NCBI GenBank assembly: GCA_041496545.1
Contig: JBGQET010000003.1
Location: 21,208 to 85,207, forward strand
DNA: 64,000 bases
Origin: Candidatus Binatia bacterium
Lineage (GTDB): Bacteria > Desulfobacterota > Binatia > DP-6
Direction of reading: 5' to 3'
Under the pieces are notes generated by a model that was given only the letters and a program-made list of their open reading frames with translations, was not told the origin of the DNA and searched no databases. The position numbers and the translations under genes were made by a program. Of the stretch, positions 35,976 through 53,903 are shown in pieces (the first letter of the stretch is position 1; each line of letters starts with the position of its first letter).

Positions 35976-38900
35976 TCAAGGAAGGCAGTACAGCTTCAAA
36001 CCGTCCGAATCGATCGTGTTCCGCGTCGTCCGCGCCTTGAGCTTGATCGACTTGTTGGCGGACTTCGTCGGTGACACGAGCGGGACGTGCACGTCGACGC
36101 GCGGGCCGCAGGCGTCGAACAGTGACGTCTGCGCCGCGACGGCCGCCGCGAGCAACCCGGCGCGGTTGACCGCATCCTCCGGCCTCTTGGCACCGTCCTT
36201 GGCGCTCGGCTTCGACACGTCCACCTGCACCGGAGTCCCGAGCGTCAGCCCACCCGGCAGGCAAGCCGGCAGGCTCGGGTCGTGCACGTTGGCGCAGAGC
36301 CAGAGGTGGAAGACGCACTCGGACGCTCCGGCTCCGAAGTCACACGACGGGTCACCGTTCTGGCAGGACTGCTTCACGTCCGGCTTGCCGAACCTGTCGA
36401 GCGACGGATGGTCGAAGGCGAACTCGATCACGCAGTCGCTGAGCGAGCTCCCCTTGCCGCCGATAAACTGGGCGGTGGGCGGCGGCTCGAGGAAGCAGAG
36501 CGGCGAGCAGCCGTCGCCGGCCGTCGTGTTGCCGTCGTCGCACTGCTCGCCTCGGGCCGTGTCGACGATGCCGTCGCCGCAGCGCGCCGGCCGGCAGTCT
36601 GTGCGGCAGCTCGCGTTGGGAGCGTTCGAGTTCGCGGCGCCGAGGTCGCACTGCTCGACGCCGGTCTGCACGAAGCCGTCGCCGCAGCGCGCCGCGATGC
36701 ACCCGACCAGGCAGGCGTCGGTGTTGCTCGCGTTGCCGTCGTCGCACGCCTCGCCCGGCTCGGGGATGCCGTTGCCGCAGCACGGGGCGAACGGCGTGTG
36801 GACGCAGACGTTCGCCGCCTCGTCGCAGGTGTCGGACGTGCAGGGGTCCGTGTCGGCGCAGTTACGCGCCTGACCCGCCGTGCAGACGCCGCCCTGGCAG
36901 GTGTCGTTCACGCTACAGAACTGACCGTCGTCGCACGTCGTGCCGTTCACCTTGTTGGGATGCGTACAGAGGCCGGAGGCGCAGACGTCGTTGCTGCACG
37001 CGTTCCCGTCGTCGGTGCACGCGCCCGTGCGGTTGGTGTACACGCAGCCCTGCGACGGGACGCAGGCGTCGGTGGTGCACTCCTTGCCGTCGTCGCAGAT
37101 CATCGGCGCGCCGGGCTGGCAGCCGCCCGCCCCGTTGCAGTGATCGCCCACCGTGCAGAGGTTGCCGTCGGAGCACGGCGTGGTGGCGGGCGCCGGCGGA
37201 TGCGTGCACCCCGTCGGCTCGACGCAGGAGTCGAGCGTGCACGGATTCGGGTCCGTGCAGTCGAGGGCGACGCCCGGCACGCAGGCGCCGACGGAGCAGC
37301 GCTCGTTGCCGTTGCAGACCAGGCCGTCGGGGCACGGCGTTCCGTCGGGCAGGAGCTGGTGCCGGCAGCCGAGCAGCGGGTCGCAGGAGTCGATGGCGCA
37401 GCCGCCGCTGACGTTGCAGGCCTCGAAGGCGCAGAACGCGGAGCAGCCGTCGCAGCTGAGCGCCGTTCCTCCGCCGTCGTCGCACTGCTCCGGATACTCC
37501 ACGATGCCGTTGCCGCAGGTCGGGCAGGGATCGAGGCAGTCGGTCTGCCCGGGCGCGGTGCAGCGGGGGATCGGGCTGTTGACGGCGAGCGGCTTGATGA
37601 TCGCGCCGGCGACGACGTTCGGGGCGACGCCGGTCGGGAACTGGAACGTGTTGGTGCCGGGGGTCGAGGGCCCCGCTGACGTGGCGGTCGCGTCGAGCAG
37701 ACCGGCGACGGTGATGTGCTCGCGGCCGGTGAGCGTGATCCCGCCGGCGATGGGAGCGCGCGCGAGAAGACTCGCGGTCGACGCGACCGAGACGTTGCAC
37801 CCGAAAACGTCGATCGAGCCCCCGTCTCCACAACTGCCGGTCGCGTCGCAGCCTCCAGCCCCGACGTCGACGGTGTTCATGAGCGACACGGTTCCCGAGC
37901 CGACGAAACCACCCGCGATGAGCACCGTACCGCCGAGGCTGGCGGCGTTGCGCCCGCTCGCGTCGATCTTCCCGGTCACGGTCAGGTCGCGGCCCGCGAG
38001 CAGGTCGATGCTGCCGGCGCTGCTGCCGCCCGAGACGTCCACCGGGCCGGCGATCGTCGCGTCCAGGTTGGCGTCGACCGAGAAGTCGCCGCCCGTGCTG
38101 AAGGTCCCGTTGCCGTGCGTCGACAGCGCGGCGGTCGACTGCACGGTGATCCCACCCACCGAGCTCAACGTGATGCTGCCACCCGTGCCGTCCGGGCTGG
38201 CACCCTCGACGGTGATGTTCCCCGTGACGATCACGTCCCCGAAGGTCGCGTCGGCGTCGAGCGACCCGCCGCAGGCGCCGAAGCTGCCGTCGTTCGCGGT
38301 GCTACCCTTCGCGGAGATGCTGTCGGTGAGCTGGACCGTGGTGCCGGCGCGGACGCTGATCGAGGCCCCGCTCCCGGCATCACCGTTGGCGTTGCCGGAT
38401 ACCTGGGCGAGCACGACGTCGTCGTGCGCGTCCACGCTGACGGTGCCACCGCCCCCGCCGCTCACGTCGAGGTCGCTGCTGATCTCGACGCGGCTGCCGG
38501 TCGAGGTGACGCTGATGCCGCCGCCGGCCGACTGGGAGCCGCCCGCGGCCTGGACGTCGCTCTGGGCCGTGAACGTCACGGCGCCGCCGGCGACGAACGT
38601 GAGCAGCCCGCCGGCGCCGGCGACGCTCAGGTTGCTCGCCAGCACCCTGCCCGACACCGTGATCGACCCACCGGCGTCGATCTCCATCGTGCCGGCGGAC
38701 ATGTCGGCGGAAACGTCGATGCGTCCGGCGGAGGTGCCGCTCCGTTGCACGTCCACGGCGCCCGTCGTCTGGATCACGATCGTGCCGCCCACGTTGAGTG
38801 GGGCCGCGCCGTTGCCCCGGCCGTCGATCCAGGAGCCGGGCGCGAGCGTCAGGCTCGCCGCCTTGAGGGTGACGACGCTCGAGCCGGTCGCCAGGGTGCC

Positions 38901-39133
38901 GTTGCCCGAGATGACGACCGCCCGCGACCCGAAGTCGAGCGTGCAGCCGTTGCCGATGACGAAGGTCTTCGTGATCGTGCACGTCGCCGGCGGCCCGGAC
39001 GGACACCCCGGGTCCTGCGACACGATCTGCGCCGCGTTGCAGGCGGAGAGGGCGCGTGCGTCACGCGCGAGCGCGAGGGTCGCGAGGACGCCTGCCGCGC
39101 ACGCGAGCCCGGACGCGACGCGCCTATTCCGCA
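35976..39133 (-). CDS. very large secreted Cys-rich repeat protein (Gly-rich beta-helix/adhesin-like N-region, tandem CxDxxxC modules, three Myxococcus-type Cys-rich repeats)
   Basis: Putative GTG start 8 nt inside the upstream beta-helix gene, giving signal peptide VRNRRVASGLACAAGVLATLALARDARA. About 10 tandem PCxDGxxCTxDxCxxxGC modules. CGNGIxEPGExCDDGN x3. The C-terminus ends in a ...LC.P..K...LYCLP module resembling those of the paralog N-domains. The start is uncertain. Confidence 0.75.
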
Positions 39134-40077
39134 CAGTCCCGCCCGTTGATCTCGCACTCGGACGGCATGACGACGCCCAGCCGCTCACCGTTGCCGCTCG
39201 CCCGGTTGCCGCCGCCGTCGACGCCCCCGACGTGGATGCCGCGCTGGCCGTTGTTGGTCGCGGTGTTGCCCTGGAGCCGGATGTCGCCGCCCGAGCCCGT
39301 GATCCCGTCACCCGCGTTGCCGCGGGCGACACAGCCGTGCACGTCGTGGTGCATGCCGGCGAGCCGGATGCCGTCGCGCGCCCCGTCCGCGGCCACGCAG
39401 TCGACCAGCGCGAGTCCCATGCCGTTGATGCTGATCGCCGCCATGCCGCTCCCCTCGGCCACGATGCCCGCCCCGGGGGCGCCGAGCCCGGCGTTCCACG
39501 CGGCGACCGAGTATCCGAAGCGGCGGCTGTTCACCGCGCGCGTGGCGTGGATGCCGAACCACGTGCCGCCGAGCGCGAAGCCGTCGCGGCCGGACTCGCG
39601 CGCCTCGACGTCACGGATCTCGTAGCCCGGCGCGTCGACGTTGACGCCGTCGCGCCCGCTGCGGACGACGGCGATCGTCGAGAGCAGCCCGAGCGAGTCG
39701 GCGCCGTGCGCCAGCACGCCGTCGCGGAACCCTTCGATCGAGGCGCGCCCACCGCTGCTCACGATGCGCGTCCCACCCGCGCCGCCGCGGAGCACCCAGA
39801 TGCCGGCGCCGTGGCCGGTGCCGCGGAGCGTTTTCCCGTGCAGGTCGATGGTGAGCGCCGCGCCGTGCGGCTCAGCCTGGACGAGCAGACCGTCGCCGGG
39901 GCAGGCCTCGCGCACCACCGGGTCGTCGCCGAGGACCACGTCGGCCACCACCACGTCGCCGCAGGCGCAGGGGACGCGCTGGCCCTGGACGTCGTCGCCA
40001 CAGAGCTTGGCGCTCGCCGGAGTGCCGGCGATCGCCAGCAGCAACATCGTCGACGCGATGCGCCAATCCATGGGCAC
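39124..40077 (-). CDS. secreted right-handed parallel beta-helix repeat protein
   Basis: AAGGAGG RBS 10 nt before the GTG at 40077 (ATG at 40071 as an alternative). Signal peptide. Gly/Asp-rich PbH1-like repeats (NxGxGIxxxG). Translationally coupled to the 35976..39133 gene. Confidence 0.8.
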   Translation of the reverse strand: MPMDWRIASTMLLLAIAGTPASAKLCGDDVQGQRVPCACGDVVVADVVLGDDPVVREACPGDGLLVQAEPHGAALTIDLHGKTLRGTGHGAGIWVLRGGAGGTRIVSSGGRASIEGFRDGVLAHGADSLGLLSTIAVVRSGRDGVNVDAPGYEIRDVEARESGRDGFALGGTWFGIHATRAVNSRRFGYSVAAWNAGLGAPGAGIVAEGSGMAAISINGMGLALVDCVAADGARDGIRLAGMHHDVHGCVARGNAGDGITGSGGDIRLQGNTATNNGQRGIHVGGVDGGGNRASGNGERLGVVMPSECEINGRDCAE

Positions 40078-40220
40078 GGTCCGGGTTCCTCCTTGGGAAA
40101 GTCAGCGGGACGACCGTGAAGCGCCTTCCGCGAGTCGACGCCTCGTGTGTCTCACGGCCACGGGACGCCCGCGTATAGGATGGGCCGCGGTCATCAGTCA
40201 ATGGAAAATTCGGGCTCGAT

Positions 40221-40988
40221 CTATCTGGGCGGCATGCGAAGTGCGCCATCCAGGCGGATGGTCTCACCATTCAGCATTGGATTTTCGACGATGTGGCGGG
40301 CGAGAGCCGCGAACTCGCTGGGCCGGCCGAGGCGCGAGGGGAAGGGAATCTGCGCCGCGAGCGCCTGGCGCTGGGGCTCGGGGAGCATGGCGAGCATCGG
40401 CGTGTCGAAGGTGCCGGGGGCGATGGTGACGCACCGGATGCCGAGCCCGGCGAGATCGCGCGCGACGGGGAGCGTCATGCTCACCACCCCGCCCTTCGAA
40501 GCCGAGTAGGCCGCCTGCCCGATCTGGCCGTCGAAGGCCGCCGCCGACGCGGTGTTAATGATGACGCCGCGCTCGCCCTCGGCGTCGGGCGCGTTCTTCG
40601 CCATCTGCGCCGCCGCCAGGCGGAGCACGTTGAAGGTGCCGATCAGGTTGATCTCGATCACCATCCGGAACATCTCGAGCGGCATCGGCCCGCTCTTGGT
40701 GACCACCCGCATGGCCGCGCCGACGCCGGCGCAGTTGACGGCGACGTGCACGGTCCCGAAGCGCTCGACGGCGCGCGCGACCGCGGCCGCCACCTCGGTG
40801 TCGCTGGTGACGTCGGCGGGTGCGAAGAGCGCGCGCTCGCCGAGGCTGGCGGCGACTTGCTCGCCGGGCGAGCCGGGACGGTCGAGGATCACCACCCGTC
40901 CGCCGCCCTCGGCGAAGGCGCGGACGGTGGCCTCCCCGAGCCCGGAGGCGCCACCCGTGACGAGCGCGACGGTGTCGGCGATGCGCAT
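40221..40988 (-). CDS. SDR family oxidoreductase (3-hydroxyacyl-CoA dehydrogenase type-2-like)
   Basis: [31 protein letters not shown] motifs. Real from the ATG at 40988. The upstream part of the ORF-track frame is an artefact. Confidence 0.9.
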
Positions 40989-41064
40989 GCGGCCTCCATA
41001 GCGGCCTCGCCGCCGCCGTGCCAGAGGCTTGCGTCGCCCCGCCCGCGCGCCGCAGAGTGGGGCC

Positions 41065-42108
41065 ATGCGCCTCGACGTCCGCGGCCACCCGCTGCACACG
41101 CGGTCCCTCTCGGTGGTGCTCACGCAGCGGGCGGACCGACGGCTCGACGCGCAAGGCACGCTGCTCGACCTGCGCAAGCGCGGCTTCGTCCCCGTGGCCG
41201 GCGATCTGCAGGGCTCGGGCATCGTCCACCTCATGCGGCTCGACGCCATCGTCGACCCGGCACGCGCGACGCTCGACTCGATCGTCGCCGCGCAGCCCGC
41301 CGTCGCCTTCGAGCCGGCCGCCATCACGGAGGGCGAGAGCTGCCGCGACCCGATCCACGCCGTCGAAGCGCTCGCCGGCGCACCCCTCGACGCCGACTTC
41401 GCGCGTCGGACGGGCGCCGCCCTGGGCGGGCCGCGCGGCTGCTCCCACATCTTGACGCTGGCGCACCTCCTCGGCTCCACCGTGGCGTGGGCGCTCGCCC
41501 GCGAGCGCGCCCTCCACGCGGACGGCGCATCCTGGGCGGCCGGCCAGCGCGTGTTCCGACGCGACGTGGTCGTCGACGGCGTCGAGCCGGAGGACGGCGG
41601 GGTCGGCATGGCCGTGCAGCTCACGGACCTGCACCTCGAGCCCGCGGGGCCGCACGCGAAGCCGATGGAGCGCTTCGCCGAGGAGCTGGAGGTGCGCGCG
41701 CTCGCCCACGTCGATCTCTCGACCTTCCGCGTCGCCGCGCTCGAGACGGCGGAGCGGCGGCGCGGCGCGGCCGACCTCGCGCACGCCACCTGGCGGAGTC
41801 GAGCGGCCGCCACGGACCCGCTTGTCGGCCTCGGGCTCGGCGCCGGCGTCACCGCCGCGCTGCTGGCGCGCCTCGGCGAGGACCCCGACGACCGCCCGCT
41901 CCTCGACGCGCTCCTCCAGCTCGCGCCCACCCTCGTGCAGTGCGCCGCCGCCCTCTCCGACACCTGGCCTGCCCTCGCGCAGTCGAACCCGTCGGTCATC
42001 GGCCTCGGCGGCCTGCCGGACTCCTGCTACATGTGGCGACGCGAGGGCCCGCTCCAGCGCCTCCGCGACCGCGAGGGCGGCTCGCTCTCCGCGCGCCCGA
42101 AGCTCTAG
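41065..42108 (+). CDS. hypothetical protein, possibly DUF2889 family
   Basis: The [12 protein letters not shown] region is reminiscent of DUF2889. Divergent from the SDR at 40988. Weak assignment. Confidence 0.55.
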
Positions 42109-42149
42109 CCGCCAGATTCCACCTTGCCCGTGCGCTCACATCCCGTATT

Positions 42150-42485
42150 ATGGTCGGCGAAGCGATGCCGAAGCGGGAGACGCAGGACAGCCCGGGCGTA
42201 GCCACCCGGACGCGCACCAAGGAGAAGCTCCAGTGCCCGCCCCTCTACAAGGTGCTGCTCCACAACGACGACTACACCACCATGGAGTTCGTCGTCTGGC
42301 TCCTCCAGAGCGTGTTTCACCACGACGAGGCCAGCGCCACCGAGGTCATGCTGCACGTCCATCGCAACGGCATCGGCGTCGCGGGCGTCTATCCCTACGA
42401 GATCGCGGAGACGCGCGTGGCGCGGGTCGAGACGCTGGCGCGGGAGCACGAGTATCCGCTCCGCTGCACGCTGGAGACCGAGTAG
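42150..42485 (+). CDS. clpS: ATP-dependent Clp protease adaptor protein ClpS
   Basis: Conserved core PPLYKVLLHNDDYTTMEFVV..L...F. Immediately precedes clpA with a 1-nt spacer. Confidence 0.9.
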   Translation: MVGEAMPKRETQDSPGVATRTRTKEKLQCPPLYKVLLHNDDYTTMEFVVWLLQSVFHHDEASATEVMLHVHRNGIGVAGVYPYEIAETRVARVETLAREHEYPLRCTLETE

Positions 42486-42486
42486 C

Positions 42487-44769
42487 ATGCGGCTCTCCCG
42501 CGCGCTCGAGGTCAGCCTGGCGCTCGCCGTCCACGAGGCGCGCAGCCGCCATCACGAGTACCTCACCGTCGAGCACGTGCTCTTCGCGCTCTGCCACGAC
42601 GACGCGGTGGCGGAGGTGCTGCGTGCCGTGGGCGGGGACGTCGAGCGGCTGAAGCAGGACCTCGTCAAGTACTTCGACGAGCGGCTCGAGAAGGTCCGCG
42701 CGAACTCCGAGGATGCGCCCCACCAGACGCTCGGCTTCCAACGCATCCTCCAGCGCGCGGCGGCGCACGTGCAATCGTCGGGCAAGGAGGAGATCGACGG
42801 GCGCAACGTGCTGGTCGCGATCTTCCGCGAGCCCGAGTCCCACGCCGCCTACCTCCTCGCCCAGCAAGGCATCACGCGCCTCGACGTCATCAGCTACCTC
42901 TCGCACGGCGTCACCAAGGTGCCGGCGGCCGAGCCCGAGGCGGACACCGACGAGGACGAGGACGACGAGAGCCCCAGCCCGCGCGGCAAGCGCGACCCGC
43001 TCGCCGCGTTCACCGTGAACCTCGTCGAGCGCGCCGCCGCCGGCAAGATCGACCCCCTGATCGGCCGCCAGCGCGAGCTCGAGCGCACCATCCACGTCCT
43101 CTCCCGCCGCCGGAAGAACAACCCCGTCTTCGTCGGCGACCCGGGCGTCGGCAAGACGGCCCTCGTCGAGGGCTTCGCGCTGCGCGTCCACCAGCGGAAG
43201 GTGCCCGAGAGCCTCCGCGACGTCGCGGTCTACGCCCTCGACATGGGGGCGCTGCTCGCCGGCACCAAGTTCCGCGGCGAGTTCGAGGCGCGCTTGAAGG
43301 GCGTGCTCGCCGCGCTCCAGGCCCGCCCCGGCGCGATCCTCTTCATCGACGAGATCCACACCGTCGTGGGCGCCGGCGCCACCCAGGGCGGCTCGCTCGA
43401 CGCCTCCAACATCCTGAAGCCCGCGCTCGCCTCCGGCGAGCTCCGCTGCATCGGCGCCACCACCCACCACGACTACAAGCAGCACTTCGAGCGCGACCGC
43501 GCGCTCGCGCGGCGCTTCCAGAAGATCGAGGTCGGCGAGCCGAGCGTCGAGGAGACGCACGCCATCCTGCGCGGCCTGCGCGGTCACTACGAGCGCCACC
43601 ACGGCGTGACGTACACCGACGGCGCGCTGCGCGCCGCGGCCGACCTCTCCGCGAAGCACGTGAACGACCGCTTCCTCCCCGACAAGGCGATCGACGTCAT
43701 CGACGAGGCCGGCGCCGCGATCAAGCTGCTCCCCGCCTCCCGGCAGAAGAAGACCGTCCGCACCCGCGACATCGAGCGGGTCGTCGCCACCATGGCCAAG
43801 ATCCCGGAGCGGACGGTCAACGTGTCCGACCGCGACCGCCTCCAGACCCTCGACCGCGACATGAAGCTCCTCGTCTTCGGCCAGGACCCGGCGATCGACA
43901 CCGTCGTGTCGGCCATCCGGCTCACGCGCGCGGGACTCGGGCAGCCGGAGAAGCCGGTCGGGTCGTTCCTGTTCGCCGGCCCGACGGGCGTCGGCAAGAC
44001 CGAGGTGGCGAAGCAGCTCGCGGCCGCGCTCGGCGTCCAGTTCCTCCGCTTCGACATGAGCGAGTTCATGGAGAAGCACACCGTCTCGCGGCTGATCGGC
44101 GCGCCCCCCGGCTACGTCGGCTTCGACCAGGGCGGGCTCCTGACCGACGCGATCCGCAAGACCCCGCACGCCGTCCTCCTCCTCGACGAGATCGAGAAGG
44201 CGCACCCGGACCTCTTCAACATCCTCCTCCAGGTGATGGACCACGCCACGCTCACCGACCACACCGGGCGCAAGGCCGACTTCCGCCACGTGATCCTCAT
44301 CATGACCACCAACGCCGGGGCGCAGGAGATGGCCGCCGCCGCGATCGGCTTCGGCGAGGCGTCGAATCGCGACAAGGGCAAGAAGGCGCTGGAGCGCTTG
44401 TTCAGCCCCGAGTTCCGCAACCGCCTCGACGGCGTCGTGCAGTTCGGCGCGCTCTCGCCCGAAGCGGTGGAGCGCGTCGTCGACAAGTTCGTGACCGAGC
44501 TCGAGCAGCAGCTCGAGGCCCGCCGCGTGAGCATCCAGCTCACCCCGGCCGCGCGCGGCTGGCTCGCCGAGCGCGGCTACGACGAGACCTTCGGCGCCCG
44601 CCCCATGGCGCGCATCATCCAGGAGAAGATCAAGCGCGTGCTGGCGGAGGAGATGCTCTTCGGGCAGCTGAAGGACGGCGGCCGGGTCGACGTCGACGCG
44701 GGCCCGGACGGCCTGACCTTCCAGTACGCGCCGCTCAAGCCCGCTCCGGCCGTCGCGGACCCCGCCTAG
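42487..44769 (+). CDS. clpA: ATP-dependent Clp protease ATP-binding subunit ClpA
   Basis: Clp N-domain repeats. Two AAA+ modules (GDPGVGKTA and GPTGVGKTE Walker A motifs). 760 aa. Canonical clpS-clpA pair. Confidence 0.95.
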
Positions 44770-45920
44770 CGCTCCTCCTCGGCCCGATCCCGCCTGAGCG
44801 CGCTGCGCTCGACGAGCCAGCCGATCTCCTGCGCGACGGCGCGTCGCTCACGGCCGAGGTAGTCGGCCACCGCCGCCCGGAGCCGCGGGTCGCGTACGAG
44901 ATGCATGCTCTCGGTCGCGTACGGGTCGAAGCCACGGAGCTGCTTGAACTCGCCGCCGGCGCCGGGCTCGAAGCGCGCGAGGCCCTCCCCGATGCAGTGC
45001 TCGATCGCGGCGTAGTAGCAGACGTTGAAGTGGAGATGCCGGAGCACGCGGAAGGCGCCCCAATAGCGGCCGTAGAGCGCGTCGCCCTTCACGACGTTGA
45101 ACGTGCCCGCCACGACCTCGCCGCGCTGGCGCGCGACGACGACGCAGAGTCGCGGCCGCATCCGCTCGCGCACCAGCTCGAAGAAGCGCTGGTTCAGGTA
45201 GCGCTGCCCCCAGGGCAGCGCATCGACCGTCCGGCGGTAGAGCTGGTAGAGACGCGGGAAGAGCGCGTCGGGGATGTCGTCGCCGGTGAGCGCGACGATC
45301 TCGACGCCCTGCTCGCCCAGCTCGCGCCGCTCCCGGCGGACCTGGTTGCGACGCTTGCTGCGGAGGCTCGCCAGGTAGTCGTCGAAGGAGCGAAAGCCGG
45401 CGTTGCGCCACTGGTACTGGTAGCCGGTGCGCCGGAGCCAGCCGCGCGCGTCGAGCGCTTCGGCCTCGTCCGGCAGGCAGAAGTTGACGTGCACGGAGGA
45501 TATCCGCTCGCGCTCGGAAAGCTCCTCCAGCGCCGCGGCGAACGCGCCGACGAGGGCGGGCCTGTCGGCACCCGGCGCGGTGAGGAAGCGCGCGCCCGTG
45601 ACGGGCGTGAACGGCACCCCGACCAGGAGCTTCGGATAGTACCGGATCCCCGCCCGTTGGGCGGCCGCGGCCCAGCTCTGGTCGAAGACGAACTCGCCCA
45701 TGCTGTGGCCCTTCACGTAGAGCGGGCAAGCGCCGACCAGGTGCTCGCCCTCCCACGCCGTCAGGTGCTGCGCGAGCCAGCCGGTGTCGGCGACCGCCGC
45801 ACCCGACTCCTCAAGCGCGGAGAGGAAGCCCCACTCGAGGAACGGCGAGCCGTCGCCGACGAGCGCGTCCCACGCGGCGCGCGGCACCTCGCGCACGCCG
45901 TCCACGACCCGGAGCTGCAT
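44766..45920 (-). CDS. GNAT-fold acyltransferase, BioF2-like/FemAB-like (DUF482, COG3146)
   Basis: MQLRVVDGVREVPRAAWDAL...FLEW.FL.ALE.SG motif typical of COG3146. TGATG overlap with the upstream SDR. The upstream 190 aa of the ORF-track frame is an artefact. Confidence 0.75.
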   Translation of the reverse strand: MQLRVVDGVREVPRAAWDALVGDGSPFLEWGFLSALEESGAAVADTGWLAQHLTAWEGEHLVGACPLYVKGHSMGEFVFDQSWAAAAQRAGIRYYPKLLVGVPFTPVTGARFLTAPGADRPALVGAFAAALEELSERERISSVHVNFCLPDEAEALDARGWLRRTGYQYQWRNAGFRSFDDYLASLRSKRRNQVRRERRELGEQGVEIVALTGDDIPDALFPRLYQLYRRTVDALPWGQRYLNQRFFELVRERMRPRLCVVVARQRGEVVAGTFNVVKGDALYGRYWGAFRVLRHLHFNVCYYAAIEHCIGEGLARFEPGAGGEFKQLRGFDPYATESMHLVRDPRLRAAVADYLGRERRAVAQEIGWLVERSALRRDRAEEER

Positions 45921-46720
45921 CAGAGAATGGACTTGACCCAGCCGCCGTCGACGTCCACACAGGTCCCGGTGATCCACGAGGCGCGGGCGGAGCAGAGGAA
46001 GGCGACGAGCGTCGCGGTGTCCTCGGGCTCGCCGAAGCGCCCCGCCGGCAGCGGCCGGCGCGCGCCGAAGTAGTCGTCGAACACGCGGCGGGGGTCGTCG
46101 GCCGAGCGGCCGGTCCGCCGGACGGCGGACGCCGTCGCGGCCTCGGTCCGCGTGATGCCGGGGCAGACGCAGTTGGTGAGCACGCCGGCGCGGGAATACG
46201 CGTTCGCGAGGATCTTGCTCAGGTTGATGAGCGCCGCCTTCGTCGGCCCGTAGGTGGGAAGCTGGTCGTCGGGCTGGCGGCCGGCGGTGGACGCGACGTT
46301 CACGATGCGTCCCCAGCCTCGCTCGAGCATGCCCGGCAGCGCGCGGCGGATGAAGCGGACGTGGACGAGGACGTTCATGGTGAAGCTCGCGAGCCAGTCG
46401 GCGTCGGTCGCGCCGAGGACGTCGGCGGCGGTCGCGGGGCCGGTCACGTTGTTCACCAGGACGTCTGCGCCGCCGAAGGCCGCCAGGTGCGCCTGCCACA
46501 CGCGCTCGACACCCTCCGCGGTGGCGAGGTCGGCTGCGACGGCGACGACGTCCGCGCCGGCGGCGCGCAGCTCCCCCTCGGCGTCGCGGAGCGCCGTCGC
46601 GCCGCGCGCGCAGAGGGTGACCCTCGCCCCCTCGGCGGCGAGCGCCGCCGCGATGGCCTTTCCGATGCCCTTGCTCGAGCCCGTGACGAGCGCTCGCTTA
46701 CCCGCGAGGCCGAGGTCCAT
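45920..46720 (-). CDS. SDR family oxidoreductase
   Basis: ALVTGSSKGIGKA, NNV, YGPTKAA motifs. 266 aa. Confidence 0.85.
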   Translation of the reverse strand: MDLGLAGKRALVTGSSKGIGKAIAAALAAEGARVTLCARGATALRDAEGELRAAGADVVAVAADLATAEGVERVWQAHLAAFGGADVLVNNVTGPATAADVLGATDADWLASFTMNVLVHVRFIRRALPGMLERGWGRIVNVASTAGRQPDDQLPTYGPTKAALINLSKILANAYSRAGVLTNCVCPGITRTEAATASAVRRTGRSADDPRRVFDDYFGARRPLPAGRFGEPEDTATLVAFLCSARASWITGTCVDVDGGWVKSIL

Positions 46721-46727
46721 CCGGCGA

Positions 46728-47576
46728 CTAGTGCACGACCTGCCGCATGACACCGGCGCAGCGGTCGAGGAGCGACAGTATCTTCTCCGCCGGCGCCGAC
46801 GGCAGCGCGAAGATGGCGCGCGTCACCCCGGCGTCGCCGAGCCGGCCGATGGCGTCGGGATCGAGCGGCACGCCGTACACCGAGACGGAGAACGCGTTCG
46901 GGTCCCGTCCCTTCTCCTTCGCCAGACGCCGCAGCTCCACGATTCCCGCCCCCAGGTCGCCGGCGCGGACGCCGATCGGCAGCCAGCCGTCCGCGTAGTC
47001 GACGACGCGCGCCAGCGCCTTCGGCCCGTGACCGCCGAGGAGGACGGGTGGGTGCGGCCGCTGCGCCGGCTTCGGCCACGACCACAGCGGCGGGAAGCGC
47101 ACCAGCTCACCCTCGAACGAGGCCTCGTCCTCGGTCCATATCTTCTTCATGGCGAGCACGCGCTCGCGCAAGAGCTTCCAGCGCGTCTTGAAGCTCGTGC
47201 CGTGGTCTTCCATCTCCTCGGCGTTCCAGCCGCCGCCGATGCCGAACAGGAAGCGGCCGCCGGACAGGAAGTCGAGGCTCGCGACCTCCTTCGCGGTGGT
47301 GATGGGGTCGCGCTCGACGAGGAGGCAGATGCCGGTGCCGAGCTTCAAGCGCGTCGTCACCGCGGCCGCGACCGCGAGCGCGACGAACGGGTCGTGCGTG
47401 TGCCAGTACTCCTTCGGCAGCTCGGGCCCCCCCGGCCAGGGGCTCCGCCGCGAGACCGGGATGTGCGTGTGCTCGGGCAGCCAGAGCGACTCGAAGCCGC
47501 GCTCCTCGGCCGCACGCGCGAGGTCGCCCACGGGCATCGCGTAGTCGGTGGCGAACATGGTGACGCCGAAGTCCAT
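46728..47576 (-). CDS. LLM-class (luciferase-like) oxidoreductase, likely F420-dependent subfamily
   Basis: MDFGVTMFATDYAMPVGDLARAAEERGFESLWLPEHTHIP matches the N-terminal signature of the F420-dependent LLM (Rv2161c-like) subfamily. Confidence 0.85.
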   Translation of the reverse strand: MDFGVTMFATDYAMPVGDLARAAEERGFESLWLPEHTHIPVSRRSPWPGGPELPKEYWHTHDPFVALAVAAAVTTRLKLGTGICLLVERDPITTAKEVASLDFLSGGRFLFGIGGGWNAEEMEDHGTSFKTRWKLLRERVLAMKKIWTEDEASFEGELVRFPPLWSWPKPAQRPHPPVLLGGHGPKALARVVDYADGWLPIGVRAGDLGAGIVELRRLAKEKGRDPNAFSVSVYGVPLDPDAIGRLGDAGVTRAIFALPSAPAEKILSLLDRCAGVMRQVVH

Positions 47577-47660
47577 GCCGTCTGGCTACGACGGGCCCCC
47601 CGCGCGGTCAAGGGGATACGGATGCTCGCCACCCACCGCGGACGGGTGTAAGCCACCGCC

Positions 47661-49178
47661 ATGACCAACCGCGACGTCGACGCGGCGCGCGCCTACCACG
47701 ACGCCACCAAGCATTCGTACGCGAGCGTCTACGGGCAGCGCCACCAGCTCGACTGGGACGTCATGCCGCGGCCGTTCAAGGTCTACCCCGACCTGCCCGC
47801 GCTGCCCCTGCCGCGCGACTTCACGACCTCGACCCGCCCCGTGCTCGCCGCGCTCGCCGATCCCGGCGCGGCGGCGGCGCCCGGCCCCGCGCTCGATCGC
47901 ACCGCGCTCGCCCGCCTCCTCTTCTTCAGCGCCGGCATCCTGCGCAAGCGAACGCACGCGGGCGGCGAGACCTACTTCCGCGCCGCGGCGTGCACGGGGG
48001 CGCTCTACCACATCGACCTCTACCTCGTGTCCGGGCCGCTCGCCGACCTCGAGGCCGGCGTCCATCACTTCGGCCCCCACGACTTCGCGCTCCGCCGTCT
48101 CCGCGCCGGCGACCATCGCGCCGCCGTCGTGGCCGCGACCGCCGGCGAGCCGGCCGTCGCGGCGGCGCCGGCGCTGCTGGTCCTCACCACGACCTTCTGG
48201 CGGAACGCGTGGAAGTACCGCGCGCGCGCCTACCGGCACGCGTTCTGGGACGCGGGGACGCTGCTCGCCAACCTGCTCGCGCTCGCGGCCGCGTGCGAGC
48301 TGCCGGCGCGCGTCGTGCTCGGCTTCGTCGACGAAGCGCTCGACGCCCTCCTCGACCTCGACGTCGCGCGCGAGGTGACGATCGCCGTCGTCCAGCTCGG
48401 CGGCGGCGGCGCGCCACCGCCGCCCGCGCCGTCCGCCCCGGCGCTCGGCCTCGCCACCCTGCCCCCGTCGGAGCGCGAGGTCGACCATCCGGAGATCCGT
48501 CGCGCCCACCTGGCCTCCTCGCTCGCCACGGCGGCCGAGGTCGCCGCCTGGCGCGGCGCGCCGCCGGAGCGTCCCGTCGCCGCGAGCGCGGGCCCGCGCG
48601 TCGCGCTCGCGCCGCTGCCCGACGGCGCGGTACGCGAGCCCATCGAGGCGGTCGTCCTCCGGCGCGGCTCGACGCGGCAGTTCGCCGCGGCGTCGATCGG
48701 GCTCGACCAGCTCTCGACGATCCTGTGGTGCGCGACGCGCGGCGTACCCTCCGACGTCGGCGACACGCGCCTCACCGCCGTCTACGTCGTGGCCCACGCC
48801 ATAGGCGGGCTGGCGCCCGGCGCGTACGCCTACGACCCGCAGGCGGGCGCCCTCGAGTGCCTGCGCGCCGGGACCTTCCGGCGCGACGCCGGCCAGCTCG
48901 CGCTCGGGCAGGCCCTCGCCGCCGACGCCGCGGTCGATGTCTTCTGGCTCGCGGACCTGGCGCCCGCCCTCGCCCGCTTCGGCAACCGCGGTTACCGCGC
49001 CGCCCAGCTCGAGGCGGCGATCGAGGGCGGCAAGACCTACCTCGGCGCCTACGCCTTCCGGCTCGGCGCCACCGGCCTCACCTTCTTCGACGACGACGTG
49101 ACGGCCTTCTTCTCGCCCCACGCCGCCGGGAAGAGCGTGATGTTCCTGATGGCGGTCGGCCGACCGGGCCGCGGTTGA
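47661..49178 (+). CDS. SagB/ThcOx-type dehydrogenase (double nitroreductase-fold protein)
   Basis: N-terminal AYHDATKHSY motif. Two nitroreductase-like halves, 505 aa. No YcaO or precursor nearby. Confidence 0.75.
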   Translation: MTNRDVDAARAYHDATKHSYASVYGQRHQLDWDVMPRPFKVYPDLPALPLPRDFTTSTRPVLAALADPGAAAAPGPALDRTALARLLFFSAGILRKRTHAGGETYFRAAACTGALYHIDLYLVSGPLADLEAGVHHFGPHDFALRRLRAGDHRAAVVAATAGEPAVAAAPALLVLTTTFWRNAWKYRARAYRHAFWDAGTLLANLLALAAACELPARVVLGFVDEALDALLDLDVAREVTIAVVQLGGGGAPPPPAPSAPALGLATLPPSEREVDHPEIRRAHLASSLATAAEVAAWRGAPPERPVAASAGPRVALAPLPDGAVREPIEAVVLRRGSTRQFAAASIGLDQLSTILWCATRGVPSDVGDTRLTAVYVVAHAIGGLAPGAYAYDPQAGALECLRAGTFRRDAGQLALGQALAADAAVDVFWLADLAPALARFGNRGYRAAQLEAAIEGGKTYLGAYAFRLGATGLTFFDDDVTAFFSPHAAGKSVMFLMAVGRPGRG

Positions 49179-49179
49179 C

Positions 49180-49842
49180 TCAGCGTGCGTGCGCGCGCCG
49201 GCGACCCCAGGCGTCCCAGTGCACGCGGTCGGCCGCCGGCAGGCGCTTCGCCGGCTTGAAGTCCGTGCCGGTGAAGTACGCGACCGGCAGGAGCGCCACC
49301 TGGGTCACCGTCTCCGGTACCCCGAGCAGCTTCGCGGCTTCGGCCTCGTGCATGAGATGGAGCGTCGTCCACGCCGAGCCCACGCCGCGCGCGCGGAGCG
49401 CCAGCATGAGCGACCACACCGCGGGCAGGATCGAGCCGTACACCGACGCCTGCATCACGACCGGTCCGTGCTCCACCCGGCCCTCGATGCAGGGCACGAC
49501 GTGCACCGGTACCTCGTGGAGGTGGTCGGCGAGGTAGGTGGCCGAGTCGATGACCCGCGGCATCTGCCGGGTGCGGAGGTCGCCCTCCGGCAGGCTGCCG
49601 GCCGTGTTCATCTCGCGATAGGTGGCGAAGGCGCGGCGGTAGAGGTCGGCGAGCCCGCGCCGCTTGGCGGCGTCGGTGACGATCACCCAGTGCCACCCCT
49701 GCATGTTCGTCCCGGTCGGCGCCTGCATGGCGATCTCGAGGCAGCGCTCGAGCACGGCCGGCTCGACGGGCCGCCGGAGGTCGAGGCGCTTGCGGACGGA
49801 GCGGGTGGTGGTGAGGAGCCGGTCGACGGTGGTCAGGTCCAT
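49180..49842 (-). CDS. nitroreductase family protein
   Basis: Classic nitroreductase N-terminus (TTRSVRKRLDLRRPVEPAVLERCLEIAMQAPTG.N.Q.W). Start at MDLTTVDRLL. Confidence 0.8.
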   Translation of the reverse strand: MDLTTVDRLLTTTRSVRKRLDLRRPVEPAVLERCLEIAMQAPTGTNMQGWHWVIVTDAAKRRGLADLYRRAFATYREMNTAGSLPEGDLRTRQMPRVIDSATYLADHLHEVPVHVVPCIEGRVEHGPVVMQASVYGSILPAVWSLMLALRARGVGSAWTTLHLMHEAEAAKLLGVPETVTQVALLPVAYFTGTDFKPAKRLPAADRVHWDAWGRRRAHAR

Positions 49843-49959
49843 GCGGCCGGCATAATCCCGGCCGGGGACCCGACGCAACGGTGGTGGGCTACGGTGGGGG
49901 GCTTCTGAAGAGCAGGCGGCGGCGCGCCCCGGACCGACGGGCGGCCGCCGCCTGCGAGG

Positions 49960-51492
49960 TCAGTTGCAGGACTTGGTGCAATCCCGGAACGTCATCGTCG
50001 CCTTCCGGGTGGCGCGTCGCGGGTTGTGGGTGCGATGGAGGAGCGCCGCCAGGCGATCCGCCGCCGACGTCTCGCACTGCTCCCCGCAGGTGGCGGGCGG
50101 CGCGGTGCCGCAGTCGGCCATGCACTTGTCGAGGGCGCCCTGGGCGAGCGCCGTGCACTGCTCGGGGTCGGTCCCCGCGTCCACGCAATCCTTCCGCATG
50201 GTCTCGGCGTCCTGCTCGCATTTGGTGGCGCAGGTGTCCGGCGGTGGCGGCTGGCAGTTCATGTCACGGCAGCGCTGCGTCACCGCGTCGCCCTTCGCCG
50301 TGCAGACCGCCTCGGTGCCGCCGCGCCGCATGCAACGACGCTTCGCGCGCGCGCCCTTGGCGGCACACTTGTCTTCGCACGTCGCCGTGCCGTCGCAGTG
50401 GATCGTCATGCACGTCTTGAAGTCGTCCTGGCTGGCCGCCGTGCAGTCGGCTTCGCTCGTGCCGCCGGCGAGGCAGCGAAGGAACTCGTGGTGAGCGTGG
50501 CTCTCGCAGCGCTCGGGGCAGGTCGGCGCCGGCGGCTCCTGGTCGCCGCAGTTGTCGTCGATGCAATGCCGGGCCGTGTCGGACGCCCGCGCCTTGCACT
50601 CGTCCTCCGTCACGCCCGACGCGACGCACGCGGCGATCCCGTCCTTGGCCGCGGCGATGCAGCGGTCCGCGCAGCTCGGGTCGGCCGTGTTGCAGCCGGC
50701 AACGCAGGCGTCCATCGCCTGCTTGGCCTGCGGGGTGCACTGTTCCGGCGTGCCGCCGCCAGCGACGCATGCCTGGAAGGCATGCTCGCCCGTCTCGTGA
50801 CACTTCTCCTCGCAGGTCGGGGCCGGCTCCGTGCAGTGCTCGGCGACGCAACGCTGGTCGAGCTGGGTGCCCAGCGCCGCGCAGAGGTCGCTCGGATGGT
50901 TCTCGGCGACGCAGTGGTCGGTCGCCGTCTTGGCCCAGCTCGCGCAACGCTCCTCGCAGGTGGGCTCGGGCGTCTGCTGGCAGTGCTCGGCGACGCACTC
51001 CTTCACGGCGTCGTCGACCTTGGCCTGGCACTCCGCCTCGGTGTGGCCCTCGGCGATGCAGTGGACGAAGACGAGCCGGCCGTAGTTCGTGCAGCGGGTC
51101 GGGCAGTCGAGCTGGCTGTCGGGCCGGCAGAGCGTCTGGGTGCAGAGATCCAGCGTCGCCGCCCGCACCGCGGTACAAGCGTCGGCGGTATTCCCGTTCG
51201 CGAGGCACTCGGCCTTCGCCTCGTCGGCGATGGAGCCGCAGCGGTCGTCGCAGGTGGGCTCGGGCTTGCTCTGGCAGTTCGCCGCGACGCACTGGTCGAA
51301 GACCGCCTTCGCCTGTCCGTAGCACTCGGTCCCGTTCTGCGCCTGGCAGGACTGGTATGTGGCCTGCGCCTGCGCGCCGCACTGCTGGACGCAGGGCGAG
51401 GCATTGGTGCCACCGCCGCCTTCCGCGAGCGAGGACGCCGCCGAGAGCAACAGAACGACAGCGGACGTGAGCAGCAGACGAGCGACGCGCAT
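49960..51492 (-). CDS. secreted cysteine-rich repeat protein (nine ~48-aa six-cysteine repeats)
   Basis: GGGAGG RBS. Signal peptide MRVARLLLTSAVVLLLSAASSLA. Nine tandem units of P.PTC...C......C.......C........C...C. The ORF-track 27-aa N-extension is ignored. Confidence 0.75.
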   Translation of the reverse strand: MRVARLLLTSAVVLLLSAASSLAEGGGGTNASPCVQQCGAQAQATYQSCQAQNGTECYGQAKAVFDQCVAANCQSKPEPTCDDRCGSIADEAKAECLANGNTADACTAVRAATLDLCTQTLCRPDSQLDCPTRCTNYGRLVFVHCIAEGHTEAECQAKVDDAVKECVAEHCQQTPEPTCEERCASWAKTATDHCVAENHPSDLCAALGTQLDQRCVAEHCTEPAPTCEEKCHETGEHAFQACVAGGGTPEQCTPQAKQAMDACVAGCNTADPSCADRCIAAAKDGIAACVASGVTEDECKARASDTARHCIDDNCGDQEPPAPTCPERCESHAHHEFLRCLAGGTSEADCTAASQDDFKTCMTIHCDGTATCEDKCAAKGARAKRRCMRRGGTEAVCTAKGDAVTQRCRDMNCQPPPPDTCATKCEQDAETMRKDCVDAGTDPEQCTALAQGALDKCMADCGTAPPATCGEQCETSAADRLAALLHRTHNPRRATRKATMTFRDCTKSCN

Positions 51493-51678
51493 GGGACCTC
51501 CCTGGGGTTTGTGGACGGAGGCCGGGAGGAGCAACCGCCATGCCGGTGACGCCGGACGGGCAAAGCCGAACAAACTCGCGCGGCGCGGAGGCTCCGCCCC
51601 GCGTTCGCCACGGCGGACTGCGCGAGCTTCGCCGCACGTACGGGTGACGACCGTCAGCCGGGCGGCGCCCGGCGTGCG

Positions 51679-52572
51679 CTATGCAGCCGCGAGCAGCGCG
51701 GCGCCGAGCACCCCGGCGGAGTCGCCCAGCTGGTTGGGGACGATCGGCGTGCGCAGCTCGTCGTTGAAGACGTGGCGAGCGACTGCGTCGCGGCCGGCCG
51801 CGTAGAGCGCGGCGATGTTGGAGAGCCCACCGCCGAGCACGATCACGTCCGGGTCGAGGATGTTGACGACGTTGGCGAGCGCACGCCCGAAGCGGTCGAG
51901 CCAGGCCGCGAGGACCGCCGCCGCCGGCTCCTCGCCGGCCGCGGCGGCCGCCGCGACGGCGGCCGCTCCGCACGGCGGGCCGCCGGCGGCGCGATGCGCC
52001 GCTTCGAGCGCCGGACCCGCGAGGAACGTCTCCACGCAGCCGCGCTGTCCGCAGTAGCAGGGCGGTCCCGCGGGATCGATCGCGTGATGACCCCACTCGC
52101 CGGCGAGATGCTGCGGTCCGGTCCACAGCCGCCCGCGGTGCACGATGCCGCCCCCCACCCCGGTCCCCAGGATGACGCCGAACACGACCTCGTGCCCGCG
52201 GCCCGCGCCGCCCCGCGCCTCGGCGAGCGCGAAGCAGTTGGCGTCGTTCTCGAGGCGGACCTCGAGGCCGAGACGCGTGGCGAGGTCGCGCGCGAGGGGA
52301 CGTCCGTTGAGGCAGGTCGTGTTCGAGTTCTTGAGCGTGCCGTCGCGCCGCGAGAGCGACCCCGGCGTGCCGATGCCGACCGCGCGGCAGCCGGGCACGT
52401 GCGGCCGGAGCGCGTCCACCACCTCCGCGACGCGCTCCAGGATGTGGTCGTAGCCGCGCTCGCGCTCGGTGGCGACGCGGAGGCGCTCCCGCGGCACGCC
52501 GTCGGGGCCGAGCACCACGCCCTCGATCTTCGTCCCGCCCAGGTCGACGCCGAGCGCCGGGCCGCCCGCCAT
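51679..52572 (-). CDS. ROK family protein (sugar kinase, glucokinase/NagK-like)
   Basis: LGVDLGGTKIE N-terminal motif. ROK signature with the Zn-binding CxCGxxGC (CYCGQRGC). GGGGAGGGG RBS. The upstream part of the ORF-track frame is an artefact. Confidence 0.85.
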   Translation of the reverse strand: MAGGPALGVDLGGTKIEGVVLGPDGVPRERLRVATERERGYDHILERVAEVVDALRPHVPGCRAVGIGTPGSLSRRDGTLKNSNTTCLNGRPLARDLATRLGLEVRLENDANCFALAEARGGAGRGHEVVFGVILGTGVGGGIVHRGRLWTGPQHLAGEWGHHAIDPAGPPCYCGQRGCVETFLAGPALEAAHRAAGGPPCGAAAVAAAAAAGEEPAAAVLAAWLDRFGRALANVVNILDPDVIVLGGGLSNIAALYAAGRDAVARHVFNDELRTPIVPNQLGDSAGVLGAALLAAA

Positions 52573-52617
52573 CCCCTCCCCTTGCCACAGGGCCGGCTCC
52601 GGAGCGAGAACGGCGCC

Positions 52618-53784
52618 ATGCCGTACGCCGAAGGGCGCGTCTTCCACGACGCCGACTCCCACGTGATGGAGACGCCGGAGTGGCTCTTCCCCTACGCCGA
52701 CCCGGCCGTCCGCGAGCGCCTCCGCCCGCTCGTCCTGACCGGCGTCAAGCCGGGCGAGGAGCGCTTCATCGAGGACATCCGCCTTCGTCTGGCCGATCCC
52801 GCGGACCGGCCCGAAGCCGAGCGCGAGCTGATGATCCGGAAGAACTGGGCGGCGATGGGCTCCTTCGTGCGCGAGGACCGGTCGCGCGCGCTCGACCTGC
52901 TCGGCTTCGCGAGCCAGCTCGTGTTCAACACCTTCATGAACGCCAAGCTGGTCGAGGCAGAGCACACGGGCGACGCCGACTGGGTGTACGGCCTGGCGCG
53001 CGCCCACAACCGCGCCATGGTCGACTTCTGCTCCGTCGACCGCCGGCTCCTCGCCGTCGGCTACGTGCCGCTCGTCGACTTCGCCCGCGCGCGGGCCATG
53101 GCCGAGGAGGCGATCGCGATGGGCGCCAAGGCGCTGCTCGTCGCCTCCGCCTGCCCCGCAGGGCACTCGCCGAGCCACGTCGGGCTCTTCCCGGTGTGGG
53201 AGGTCGCACAGGAAGCCGAGCGCCCGATCGTCTTCCACGTCGGAGGCGGCGGCCGTCTCCTCGACCCGACGTACTTCGCGAACGGCCTCCCGCTCGTCAC
53301 CGACTTCCACGGCGGCGCCGAGAACTTCCGCTCCGTGGACTACATGGCCATCCCCGGCCCGCCCATGCAGACGCTCGCCACGCTCATCATCGACGGCGTG
53401 CTCGAGCGCTTCCCGCGCTTGAAGCTCGGCGTCATCGAGCAGGGCGCGGTGTGGGTGCCGAGCTGGATGCGGCAGCTCGACGCCGCGCACGAGGCGTTCG
53501 CCAAGTCCGAGGAGCGGCTGCGGCGCCTCTCGCTCCGGCCGAGCGAGTACGTCCGCCGTCAGGTCCGCGTCACGCCCTACCCCACCGAGCCGGTGGGCTG
53601 GATCGTCGAGCAGGCGGGCGAGGAGATCTGTCTCTTCTCCTCCGACTATCCGCACGTCGAGGGCGGCCGGAACCCGCTCAAGCGCTTCGCCGACGGCCTG
53701 GTGGGCCTCGGCGAGCGAGCGCTCCAGCGCTTCTACTGCGACAACTTCGTCGACCTGATGGGCCCGGCCCTCACCGCCGCCTGA
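52618..53784 (+). CDS. amidohydrolase family protein (amidohydrolase-2/ACMSD-like metal-dependent TIM-barrel hydrolase)
   Basis: DADSHV N-terminal metal-ligand motif, FHVGGGG, and a C-terminal DYPH motif. Real from the ATG at 52618. Confidence 0.8.
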   Translation: MPYAEGRVFHDADSHVMETPEWLFPYADPAVRERLRPLVLTGVKPGEERFIEDIRLRLADPADRPEAERELMIRKNWAAMGSFVREDRSRALDLLGFASQLVFNTFMNAKLVEAEHTGDADWVYGLARAHNRAMVDFCSVDRRLLAVGYVPLVDFARARAMAEEAIAMGAKALLVASACPAGHSPSHVGLFPVWEVAQEAERPIVFHVGGGGRLLDPTYFANGLPLVTDFHGGAENFRSVDYMAIPGPPMQTLATLIIDGVLERFPRLKLGVIEQGAVWVPSWMRQLDAAHEAFAKSEERLRRLSLRPSEYVRRQVRVTPYPTEPVGWIVEQAGEEICLFSSDYPHVEGGRNPLKRFADGLVGLGERALQRFYCDNFVDLMGPALTAA

Positions 53785-53903
53785 CCCCGCCCCGCCGGGC
53801 GTCCGCCTACGGCTTCGCCTCCGCGCTCACCGCGCAGGTCGCGCCGCAGGCGGCGGAGCCCCATGCGCGGCCGGACTAGCCGGCCGGCCGGCGGCGCGTC
53901 AAG

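Follow-up and report, generated by a model that had tools for sequence, protein, structure and literature searches.

The DNA analyzed here is a stretch of 64,000 nucleotides (the window) from contig JBGQET010000003.1 of assembly GCA_041496545.1, a Candidatus Binatia bacterium, and the gene under study encodes a protein of 505 amino acids (aa) related to the SagB and ThcOx dehydrogenases. An earlier note, made from the letters alone, had described this gene as an orphan: an enzyme of the kind best known from clusters for peptides that are ribosomally synthesized and then post-translationally modified (RiPPs), embedded among oxidoreductase genes with neither a YcaO cyclodehydratase nor a precursor peptide. 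The protein is very likely a member of the two-domain family typified by Protein Data Bank (PDB) structure 3EO7, and its gene had no conserved partner in any lineage sampled.

Genes were called from third-position GC, the window being about 72% GC, and the calls were cross-checked against those of the Joint Genome Institute (JGI) on a 99.9%-identical metagenome contig (L001, JGI Ga0534155_0000229). Both sets of calls reproduced the coordinates of the earlier note exactly. Contig L001, which carried the best database match, was collinear with window positions 37661-56040, differed from it at 14 of 18,380 positions and stopped about 8 kb short of the window end; because of the mismatches and the earlier contig end, it was taken to be a different, near-identical assembly or strain.

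The genes flanking the SagB-like gene were exactly those described before, each with its own profile match: a plain nitroreductase on one side and, on the other, a luciferase-like monooxygenase (LLM)-class oxidoreductase, a short-chain dehydrogenase (SDR) and a FemAB-like protein with a GCN5-related N-acetyltransferase (GNAT) fold (Table 1). The LLM gene and the SagB-like gene are divergent, with an 84-bp spacer between them, and the nitroreductase gene is convergent, with the two stop codons one base apart. Because of these orientations the SagB-like gene does not share an operon with either of them, and it would be transcribed on its own. A scan for promoters and terminators around the gene found none, as expected at 72% GC, and no Rfam family reached its gathering score anywhere in the window. 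The neighboring nitroreductase scored 64 bits against BluB, for which the cutoff is 150, and was also far under the cutoff for FbiB.

Table 1. Positions in the window of the SagB-like gene, its parts and its flanking genes.
Feature	Coordinates	Strand	Basis or remark
FemAB_like/DUF482 GNAT-fold protein	44766..45920	-	PF04339, 464 bits
SDR	45920..46720	-	adh_short, 154 bits
LLM-class oxidoreductase	46728..47576	-	TIGR03619 (F420-type), 281 bits, cutoff 167
SagB-type gene, 505 aa	47661..49178	+	TIGR03605, 149.4 bits, cutoff 78.4, two stretches
N-terminal extension, aa 1-80	47661..47900	+	conserved Y12-H13-x2-T16-K17-H18 and P36-x2-F39-K40-x-Y42
N-terminal SagB-type domain (catalytic half), aa 83-247	47907..48401	+	best TIGR03605 stretch
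Codons of Lys185-Tyr186, counterpart of the azoline-oxidase catalytic dyad	48213..48218	+	alignment with McbC and ThcOx
Pro/Ala-rich inter-domain linker, aa 248-330	48402..48650	+	read from the sequence
C-terminal nitroreductase-fold domain (half binding the phosphate of flavin mononucleotide, FMN), aa 331-505	48651..49175	+	best PF00881 stretch, 334-500
Codons of R335-G-S337-T-R339, classical R-x-S-x-R FMN phosphate motif	48663..48677	+	C-terminal domain
Plain single-domain nitroreductase	49180..49842	-	PF00881, 72.5 bits

Profile comparison bore out the SagB-type identification. The 505-aa protein scored well over the TIGR03605 cutoff, and the fit to the generic nitroreductase family was much poorer (57.8 bits for PF00881 versus 149.4 for TIGR03605). 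At E ≤ 0.01 it was matched by TIGR03605 and TIGR04511 only, the latter a SagB-related model named 'putative peptide maturation dehydrogenase' for which its score of 94.2 bits lay under the curated cutoff of 240. In the NCBIfam scan the classical nitroreductase models, NfsA and NfsB among them, all failed to match it. A better score against generic nitroreductases, which the earlier note had named as a ground for rejecting the SagB-type call, was therefore not seen.

The closest protein of known structure was 3EO7, the 511-aa Ava_2154 of Anabaena variabilis, which was deposited without publication by JCSG (Joint Center for Structural Genomics) as a 'putative nitroreductase'. The phmmer alignment spanned the whole length of the two proteins (residues 8-502 of the window protein and 9-510 of 3EO7, E = 1.4e-46) at about 26% identity, whereas McbC and ThcOx matched a single domain at about 1e-5. 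Two nitroreductase-fold halves lie in the one chain of about 500 aa, as seen from the two TIGR03605 and two PF00881 stretches, an internal alignment and the secondary structure of a model. With the N-terminal domain alone, McbC (30.6 bits) and ThcOx (28.9 bits) both scored higher than the C-terminal half of 3EO7 (22.8 bits). Because 3EO7 scored far over McbC and ThcOx, which were themselves slightly over the protein's own C-terminal half, it was placed in the stand-alone clade.

An AlphaFold2 model of the protein, made from 53 homologs, had a predicted local distance difference test score (pLDDT) of 90.4 and a predicted template modeling score (pTM) of 0.93. When the model was searched with Foldseek, 3eo7 was the sole full-length match (E = 1.6e-35, template modeling scores 0.78/0.80), followed by ThcOx, several uncharacterized single-domain nitroreductases, BmdC, McbC and AlbA. 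The matches to ThcOx and BmdC fell on the N-terminal catalytic half (E from 3e-9 to 1e-7), AlbA was reached at E = 9e-5, and the similarity to NfsA and NfsB was weak (E from 1e-4 to 1e-3). Going by the predicted structure, the characterized fold neighbors after 3eo7 are the substrate-oxidizing branch, ranked before reductases of the NfsA/NfsB type.

Conservation was computed over 114 diverse family representatives. In the N-terminal extension, H13 was conserved in 93%, T16 in 89%, P36 in 97%, K40 in 95% and Y42 in 94%. The extension is not a RiPP recognition element (RRE), its modeled structure being two short helices, a strand and a helix and not a winged helix. The Foldseek matches to ThcOx span the nitroreductase-fold part and leave the extension out.

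The N-terminal domain carries R107, K185-Y186, R189, R192, D197 and G199. Its segment W-K185-Y186-R-A-R-A-Y-R-H...W-D197-A-G199 aligned with F-K201-Y202-R-Y-R-G-Y-R...E-T-G of McbC and with W-K-Y of ThcOx. At the dyad, position 185 was Lys in 82% and Arg in 14% of the representatives and position 186 was Tyr in 98%; R189 was conserved in 99%, and R192, D197 and G199 in 100% each. The linker was less conserved, and insertions and deletions relative to 3EO7 fell within it. The FMN phosphate motif of the C-terminal domain was nearly invariant (R335 99%, S337 100%, R339 97%).

The internal alignment of the two halves placed R439-F440 of the C-terminal domain opposite K185-Y186, positions at which the family has R or A and L, F or Y, and a variable, gappy stretch of the N-terminal domain at the place where its own R-x-S-x-R would lie. 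On these residues the reciprocal second site is degenerate. The FMN contacts of 3EO7 have been given as R98, P101, S102, D188, H191 and R334 (PMC7538488). The phmmer alignment maps them to R107, A110, C111, D197 and T200 in the N-terminal half and R335 in the C-terminal half, and R107, D197 and R335 (R98, D188 and R334 of 3EO7) were 98-100% conserved. Because the mapped contacts come from both halves, one FMN site is expected to draw on both.

The statement that no YcaO gene lies within 15 kb on either side was confirmed and could be widened to the whole window. Essentially all called genes of the 64 kb were scanned with Pfam without a match to a YcaO, cyclodehydratase, E1-like or RRE protein, and no uncalled gap in the window was long enough to conceal one. 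Between 32 and 64 kb, no intergenic stretch held a credible short open reading frame (ORF) rich in Cys, Ser or Thr.

Next to the genes of Table 1, on the minus strand at 49960-51492, lies a gene for a secreted protein of 510 aa that has a signal peptide and whose 58 cysteines are spaced with a regular period of about 47-49 residues (C-x3-C-x10-C-x7/9-C-x10-C-x4-C). It had no Pfam or NCBIfam match, and the nearest Binatia relatives have homologs of it (36-49% identical) that lie downstream of the SagB-like gene at a distance of a few kb. This protein was considered as a RiPP precursor and rejected, being too long, with a signal peptide and regular repeats.

The family is large and widespread. 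The search gave 7845 matches among 90%-identity clusters. Grouped at 50% identity, the family comprised at least 900 clusters with E ≤ 1e-30, with a length of about 500 aa in nearly every case, and it occurs in Binatia, Dehalococcoidia/Chloroflexota, NC10, Acidobacteriota, Tectomicrobia, Verrucomicrobiota, Armatimonadota, cyanobacteria and others. No domain fusions were seen; the ten longer homologs carry nitroreductase domains only. The cyanobacterial orthologs are 78-99% identical to 3EO7 across Nostocales, which is unusually strong conservation for a protein without an assigned function, and the symbiont Richelia intracellularis, whose genome is reduced, has kept an ortholog. These cyanobacterial proteins are annotated as 'SagB/ThcOx family dehydrogenase', and the databases name the family 'SagB family peptide dehydrogenase'. 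Among plants, Arabidopsis At1g02020 (O23673) and other organellar 'nitroreductases' have been placed closest to 3EO7 (PMC7538488). The orphan status claimed by the earlier note is thus real, yet less unusual than it implied, since stand-alone SagB-like proteins are numerous and the 3EO7 structure has been available since 2008.

Gene neighborhoods were compared at 79 genome loci from many phyla, with SagB-like homologs 49-71% identical, by tblastn of the window neighbors, by clustering all ORFs within 5 kb de novo with BLAST and by a Pfam census of 145 immediate flanking genes. At about 65 of these loci tblastn placed no window neighbor within 10 kb, and entirely different neighbors surrounded the gene of a 62%-identical relative, which lies on a contig of 875 kb. 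Only the nearest Binatia relatives had the LLM and FemAB_like genes adjoining the SagB-like gene, and in them the order FemAB_like-LLM-SagB-like recurred (L003-L006 and L017). In one of these, L003, a 70%-identical Binatia relative, the order was DUF2889-ClpS-ClpA-FemAB_like-LLM / SagB-like / nitroreductase. The SDR gene was variable among close relatives, being absent from its position in L003 and present in L005, and a nitroreductase homolog was adjacent in a single other species-level lineage only (L003, L004 and L017).

At three loci (L013, L039 and L049) the FemAB_like and LLM genes lay together with the SagB-like gene 5-9 kb away, in L039 also near ClpA. Because the two genes stay adjacent even where the SagB-like gene has moved off, the comparison suggests that FemAB_like and LLM form the linked pair and that the SagB-like gene is not part of it. 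The order DUF2889-ClpS-ClpA-FemAB_like, which spans 41065-45920 of the window, was kept in L003 and L006, and FemAB_like is syntenic with ClpS-ClpA and not with the SagB-like gene. In the window the FemAB_like gene converges on ClpA with an overlap of 4 nt.

No neighbor family found by BLAST clustering occurred in more than 16 of the 79 loci. Those that did recur (MBL-fold, GATase, SPFH/NfeD, Fpg and KsgA) were confined to one sublineage and look like sublineage housekeeping synteny. The Pfam census gave 167 families among the 145 immediate neighbors; the commonest was counted 13 times, whereas LLM came up twice and SDR three times. Three cyanobacterial genomes each had different neighbors (ndhB; pyrH-frr; OTCase and lexA). 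YcaO was not among the recurrent neighbors in the 79 loci, the census or these three genomes. Within the window itself, Pfam scans assigned roughly 15-19 of about 56 genes to oxidoreductases, and because they make up a quarter to a third of its genes the oxidoreductase flanks were taken as background; the probability of finding three among four neighbors by chance is about 0.08. The 'oxidoreductase cluster' amounts to this background and to shallow synteny specific to the lineage, the genome being rich in oxidoreductases, and the neighbors are coincidental. The earlier proposal of a functional cluster, in which the flanking oxidoreductases and acyltransferase would hint at a substrate such as an acylated amino acid, is therefore contradicted by comparative genomics.

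Other features of the window are recorded here as observations in their own right. Besides the LLM gene at 46728-47576 with its TIGR03619 match, F420-flavored genes were found at 58862-60055, 63591-63974 and 28944-29849, the products being a second LLM, a small protein resembling PNPOx or F420H2-quinone reductase, and an NAD_binding_2 protein with an F420_oxidored match. Judged from these matches, there are hints that the organism may use F420. On the minus strand, 29895-40077 encodes four consecutive large proteins (747, 1078, 1052 and 317 aa) with hydrophobic, signal-peptide-like N-termini; they carry DUF7450, Cys-rich DUF4215/Dicty_CTDC repeats and a beta-helix, and the 1078-aa protein had no Pfam match. 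The stretch at 30-34 kb has a lower GC content (0.69) and a marked positive GC skew (+0.11). A B12-binding radical SAM (S-adenosylmethionine) enzyme is encoded at 3925-5364 on the minus strand, beside a 137-aa hydrophobic protein that also lacked a Pfam match, and an ABC-2 transporter pair lies near it at 5822-8382 on the plus strand, more than 39 kb from the SagB-like gene and unrelated to it. A gene of the CrcB fluoride channel family followed by a DUF190 gene occupies 60144-60897 on the plus strand; no fluoride riboswitch reached the Rfam gathering score in the window.

Compared with known systems, the protein most resembles 3EO7. Both are collinear proteins of about 500 aa, with two nitroreductase-fold halves per chain and FMN-contact residues drawn from both halves, and both are encoded by stand-alone genes without YcaO (for the 3EO7 side, in the three cyanobacterial genomes). 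They differ at the dyad, which is Lys-Tyr in the window protein, as in 82% of the family, and Arg-Tyr in 3EO7. The window protein has every testable feature of the 3EO7-like two-domain family, and FMN binding is predicted. Arabidopsis At1g02020 and other Viridiplantae 'nitroreductases' are reported to conserve the FMN-binding residues of 3EO7 (PMC7538488); as they are also reported closest to it, they would belong to the same two-domain family, and they differ from the window protein in being eukaryotic and organelle-targeted, with a transit peptide.

With the B proteins (SagB, McbC and BcerB) of thiazole/oxazole-modified microcin (TOMM) and linear azol(in)e-containing peptide (LAP) systems, the window protein shares the TIGR03605 domain, the signature K-Y-R-x-R-x-Y-R...[D/E]-x-G with its Lys-Tyr dyad, and an FMN-dependent nitroreductase fold. 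Those proteins are single-domain homodimers, often with an RRE, and act in complex with the YcaO cyclodehydratase on a leader-bearing precursor. The window protein, unlike them, is a fused pseudo-dimer with one predicted active site, it has no YcaO, precursor or complex partners, and its similarity to them is at the level of about 1e-5. It would thus be like an azoline oxidase in its active-site residues, and it appears to lack the YcaO partner, the precursor and the homodimeric or RRE-bearing architecture of TOMM systems.

ThcOx (the cyanobactin oxidase) and BmdC (a thiazoline oxidase associated with a nonribosomal peptide synthetase, NRPS) were the next-best structural matches to the N-terminal half, and ThcOx has the same W-K-Y at the dyad position as the window protein. 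The FMN domain of ThcOx superposes on residues 97-245 of 3EO7 at 1.45 Å (PMC5108345). Both enzymes dimerize and carry RRE or RRE-like peptide- or carrier-binding domains, whereas the window protein begins with a conserved extension of 80 residues that is unrelated to such domains and ends in a degenerate second nitroreductase-fold half. The cyclodipeptide oxidase AlbA is alike in having a nitroreductase fold and in being an FMN-dependent Cα-Cβ dehydrogenase with a small, diffusible, peptide-derived substrate, and its example demonstrates that enzymes of this branch are able to desaturate free small molecules. It differs in that the similarity is distant, the enzyme is a hetero-oligomeric AlbAB filament and its gene belongs to a cyclodipeptide-synthase cluster.

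We consider the protein to be an ordinary stand-alone two-domain SagB-like flavoprotein with 3EO7 as its prototype, most probably an FMN-dependent α,β-dehydrogenase of a diffusible substrate, and give this reading a probability of roughly 60%. Its parts do not stand equally firm: the stand-alone status is likely, as is the single site, and for the α,β-dehydrogenase chemistry, proposed by analogy, the odds are about even. In the mechanism we propose, the two halves would pack as an intramolecular pseudo-dimer with one FMN at the interface. The FMN site would be built from R107, D197 and T200 of the N-terminal half and R335, S337 and R339 of the C-terminal half, with the dyad lying over the flavin.

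In McbC, Lys201 activates Tyr202, which takes the α-proton of the azoline while the β-hydride passes to N5 of FMN (PMC6395948). By this analogy, Lys185 would activate Tyr186, and Tyr186 would abstract the substrate's α-proton, next to an activating C=N or C=O group. Transfer of the β-hydride to N5 of FMN would give the α,β-dehydrogenated product, and the reduced flavin may then be re-oxidized by O2 or another acceptor. Because the protein lacks both a leader-recognition domain and a YcaO partner, it probably acts on a small molecule that diffuses freely or on a generic peptide, and not on a RiPP precursor. A role outside RiPPs, as the earlier note had suggested, is supported as the best reading at the level of the family, which was stand-alone in every lineage sampled; the hint at a cluster and its substrate did not hold.

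Several points weigh against this reading. The dyad Lys is replaced by Arg in 14% of representatives, 3EO7 among them, which weakens a strict Lys-Tyr mechanism. No published activity or function for a member of the two-domain family was found in the literature searched, and because of this both the chemistry and its direction are argued by analogy. A single-domain enzyme of the SagB subgroup has NAD(P)H-linked nitroreductase activity on metronidazole (PMC10055417), so that reductive chemistry is possible. The stoichiometry of one FMN is inferred from the residue list in a secondary paper (PMC7538488) and our alignment to it. Finally, a YcaO gene may be present elsewhere in the genome, of which one 64-kb window was visible.

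The best-surviving rival, which is doubtful but deserves weight, is that the protein reduces nitro compounds, quinones or flavins as a generic NAD(P)H-dependent enzyme of detoxification or redox stress, working reductively like NfsA/NfsB, with the conserved Tyr binding substrate and not taking part in catalysis. The nitroreductase fold with its PF00881 match and the housekeeping-like, stand-alone gene contexts are consistent with it, as are the finding that a 187-aa metagenomic enzyme of the SagB subgroup sensitized Escherichia coli to metronidazole (PMC10055417) and the speculation of the authors of PMC7538488 on an oxidative-stress role for the plant homologs. It is opposed by the failure of NfsA, NfsB and the other classical NCBIfam nitroreductase models to match and by the ranking of the substrate oxidases ThcOx, BmdC, McbC and AlbA as the nearest structures after 3EO7. 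The conservation of the signature K-Y-R-x-R-x-Y-R...D-x-G at 82-100% is also hard to explain for a promiscuous reductase.

A local pathway, in which the SagB-like enzyme would be joined by the LLM, the SDR, the nitroreductase and the FemAB-like acyltransferase and the substrate would be, for example, a heterocycle or an acylated amino acid, is improbable. The tight packing of the genes, with the short divergent spacer before the LLM gene and the 1-bp gap before the nitroreductase gene, would fit such a pathway, and so would the gene order shared with the nearest Binatia relatives. The genes lie on opposite strands, however, and hence do not form one operon; the SDR gene is missing from L003, the nitroreductase gene recurs in one other lineage only, and the FemAB_like and LLM pair separates from the SagB-like gene at three loci. 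Most of the sampled loci lack all of these genes nearby, LLM and SDR are rare among the immediate flanking genes, and an oxidoreductase-rich window makes such company unsurprising by chance.

Action in trans, as a TOMM/LAP azoline dehydrogenase whose precursor and YcaO cyclodehydratase are encoded elsewhere in the genome (the earlier note had allowed for partner genes elsewhere), is possible in that 64 kb is all of the genome that was visible, that TIGR03605 is matched above cutoff and that the Lys-Tyr dyad is intact, but it is very improbable given the lack of an RRE or other leader-binding domain, the fused pseudo-dimer in place of a homodimer, the 40-order-of-magnitude preference for 3EO7 over McbC and ThcOx, the TIGR04511 score of 94 bits against a cutoff of 240, the absence of YcaO from the recurrent neighbors, the reported presence of the family in plant organelles (PMC7538488) and the many non-TOMM homologs that B proteins have (Cox et al. 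2015, PMC4603692).

With the stand-alone two-domain flavoprotein as the favored reading, the SagB-like locus is a routine member of an already named family, and its neighbors offer no clue to a pathway. For annotation and genome mining, a two-domain TIGR03605 match of about 500 aa is not to be read as a RiPP marker, and the database name 'SagB family peptide dehydrogenase' is somewhat misleading for the two-domain family. The question that matters lies at the level of the family: what is the substrate of a highly conserved, YcaO-independent flavoenzyme, resembling the azoline oxidases, that occurs in Binatia, cyanobacteria and reportedly plant organelles? One proposal, which we regard as unlikely, is that the 3EO7-like family is a conserved housekeeping dehydrogenase that performs azoline-oxidase chemistry independently of YcaO, with a Lys/Arg-Tyr dyad and FMN, on a free metabolite, a spontaneously formed heterocycle (a thiazoline, an oxazoline or a dihydro-heterocycle adduct) or a peptide backbone. 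If this were true, the enzyme would have a role in primary metabolism or damage repair common to Binatia, Chloroflexota, cyanobacteria and plant organelles.

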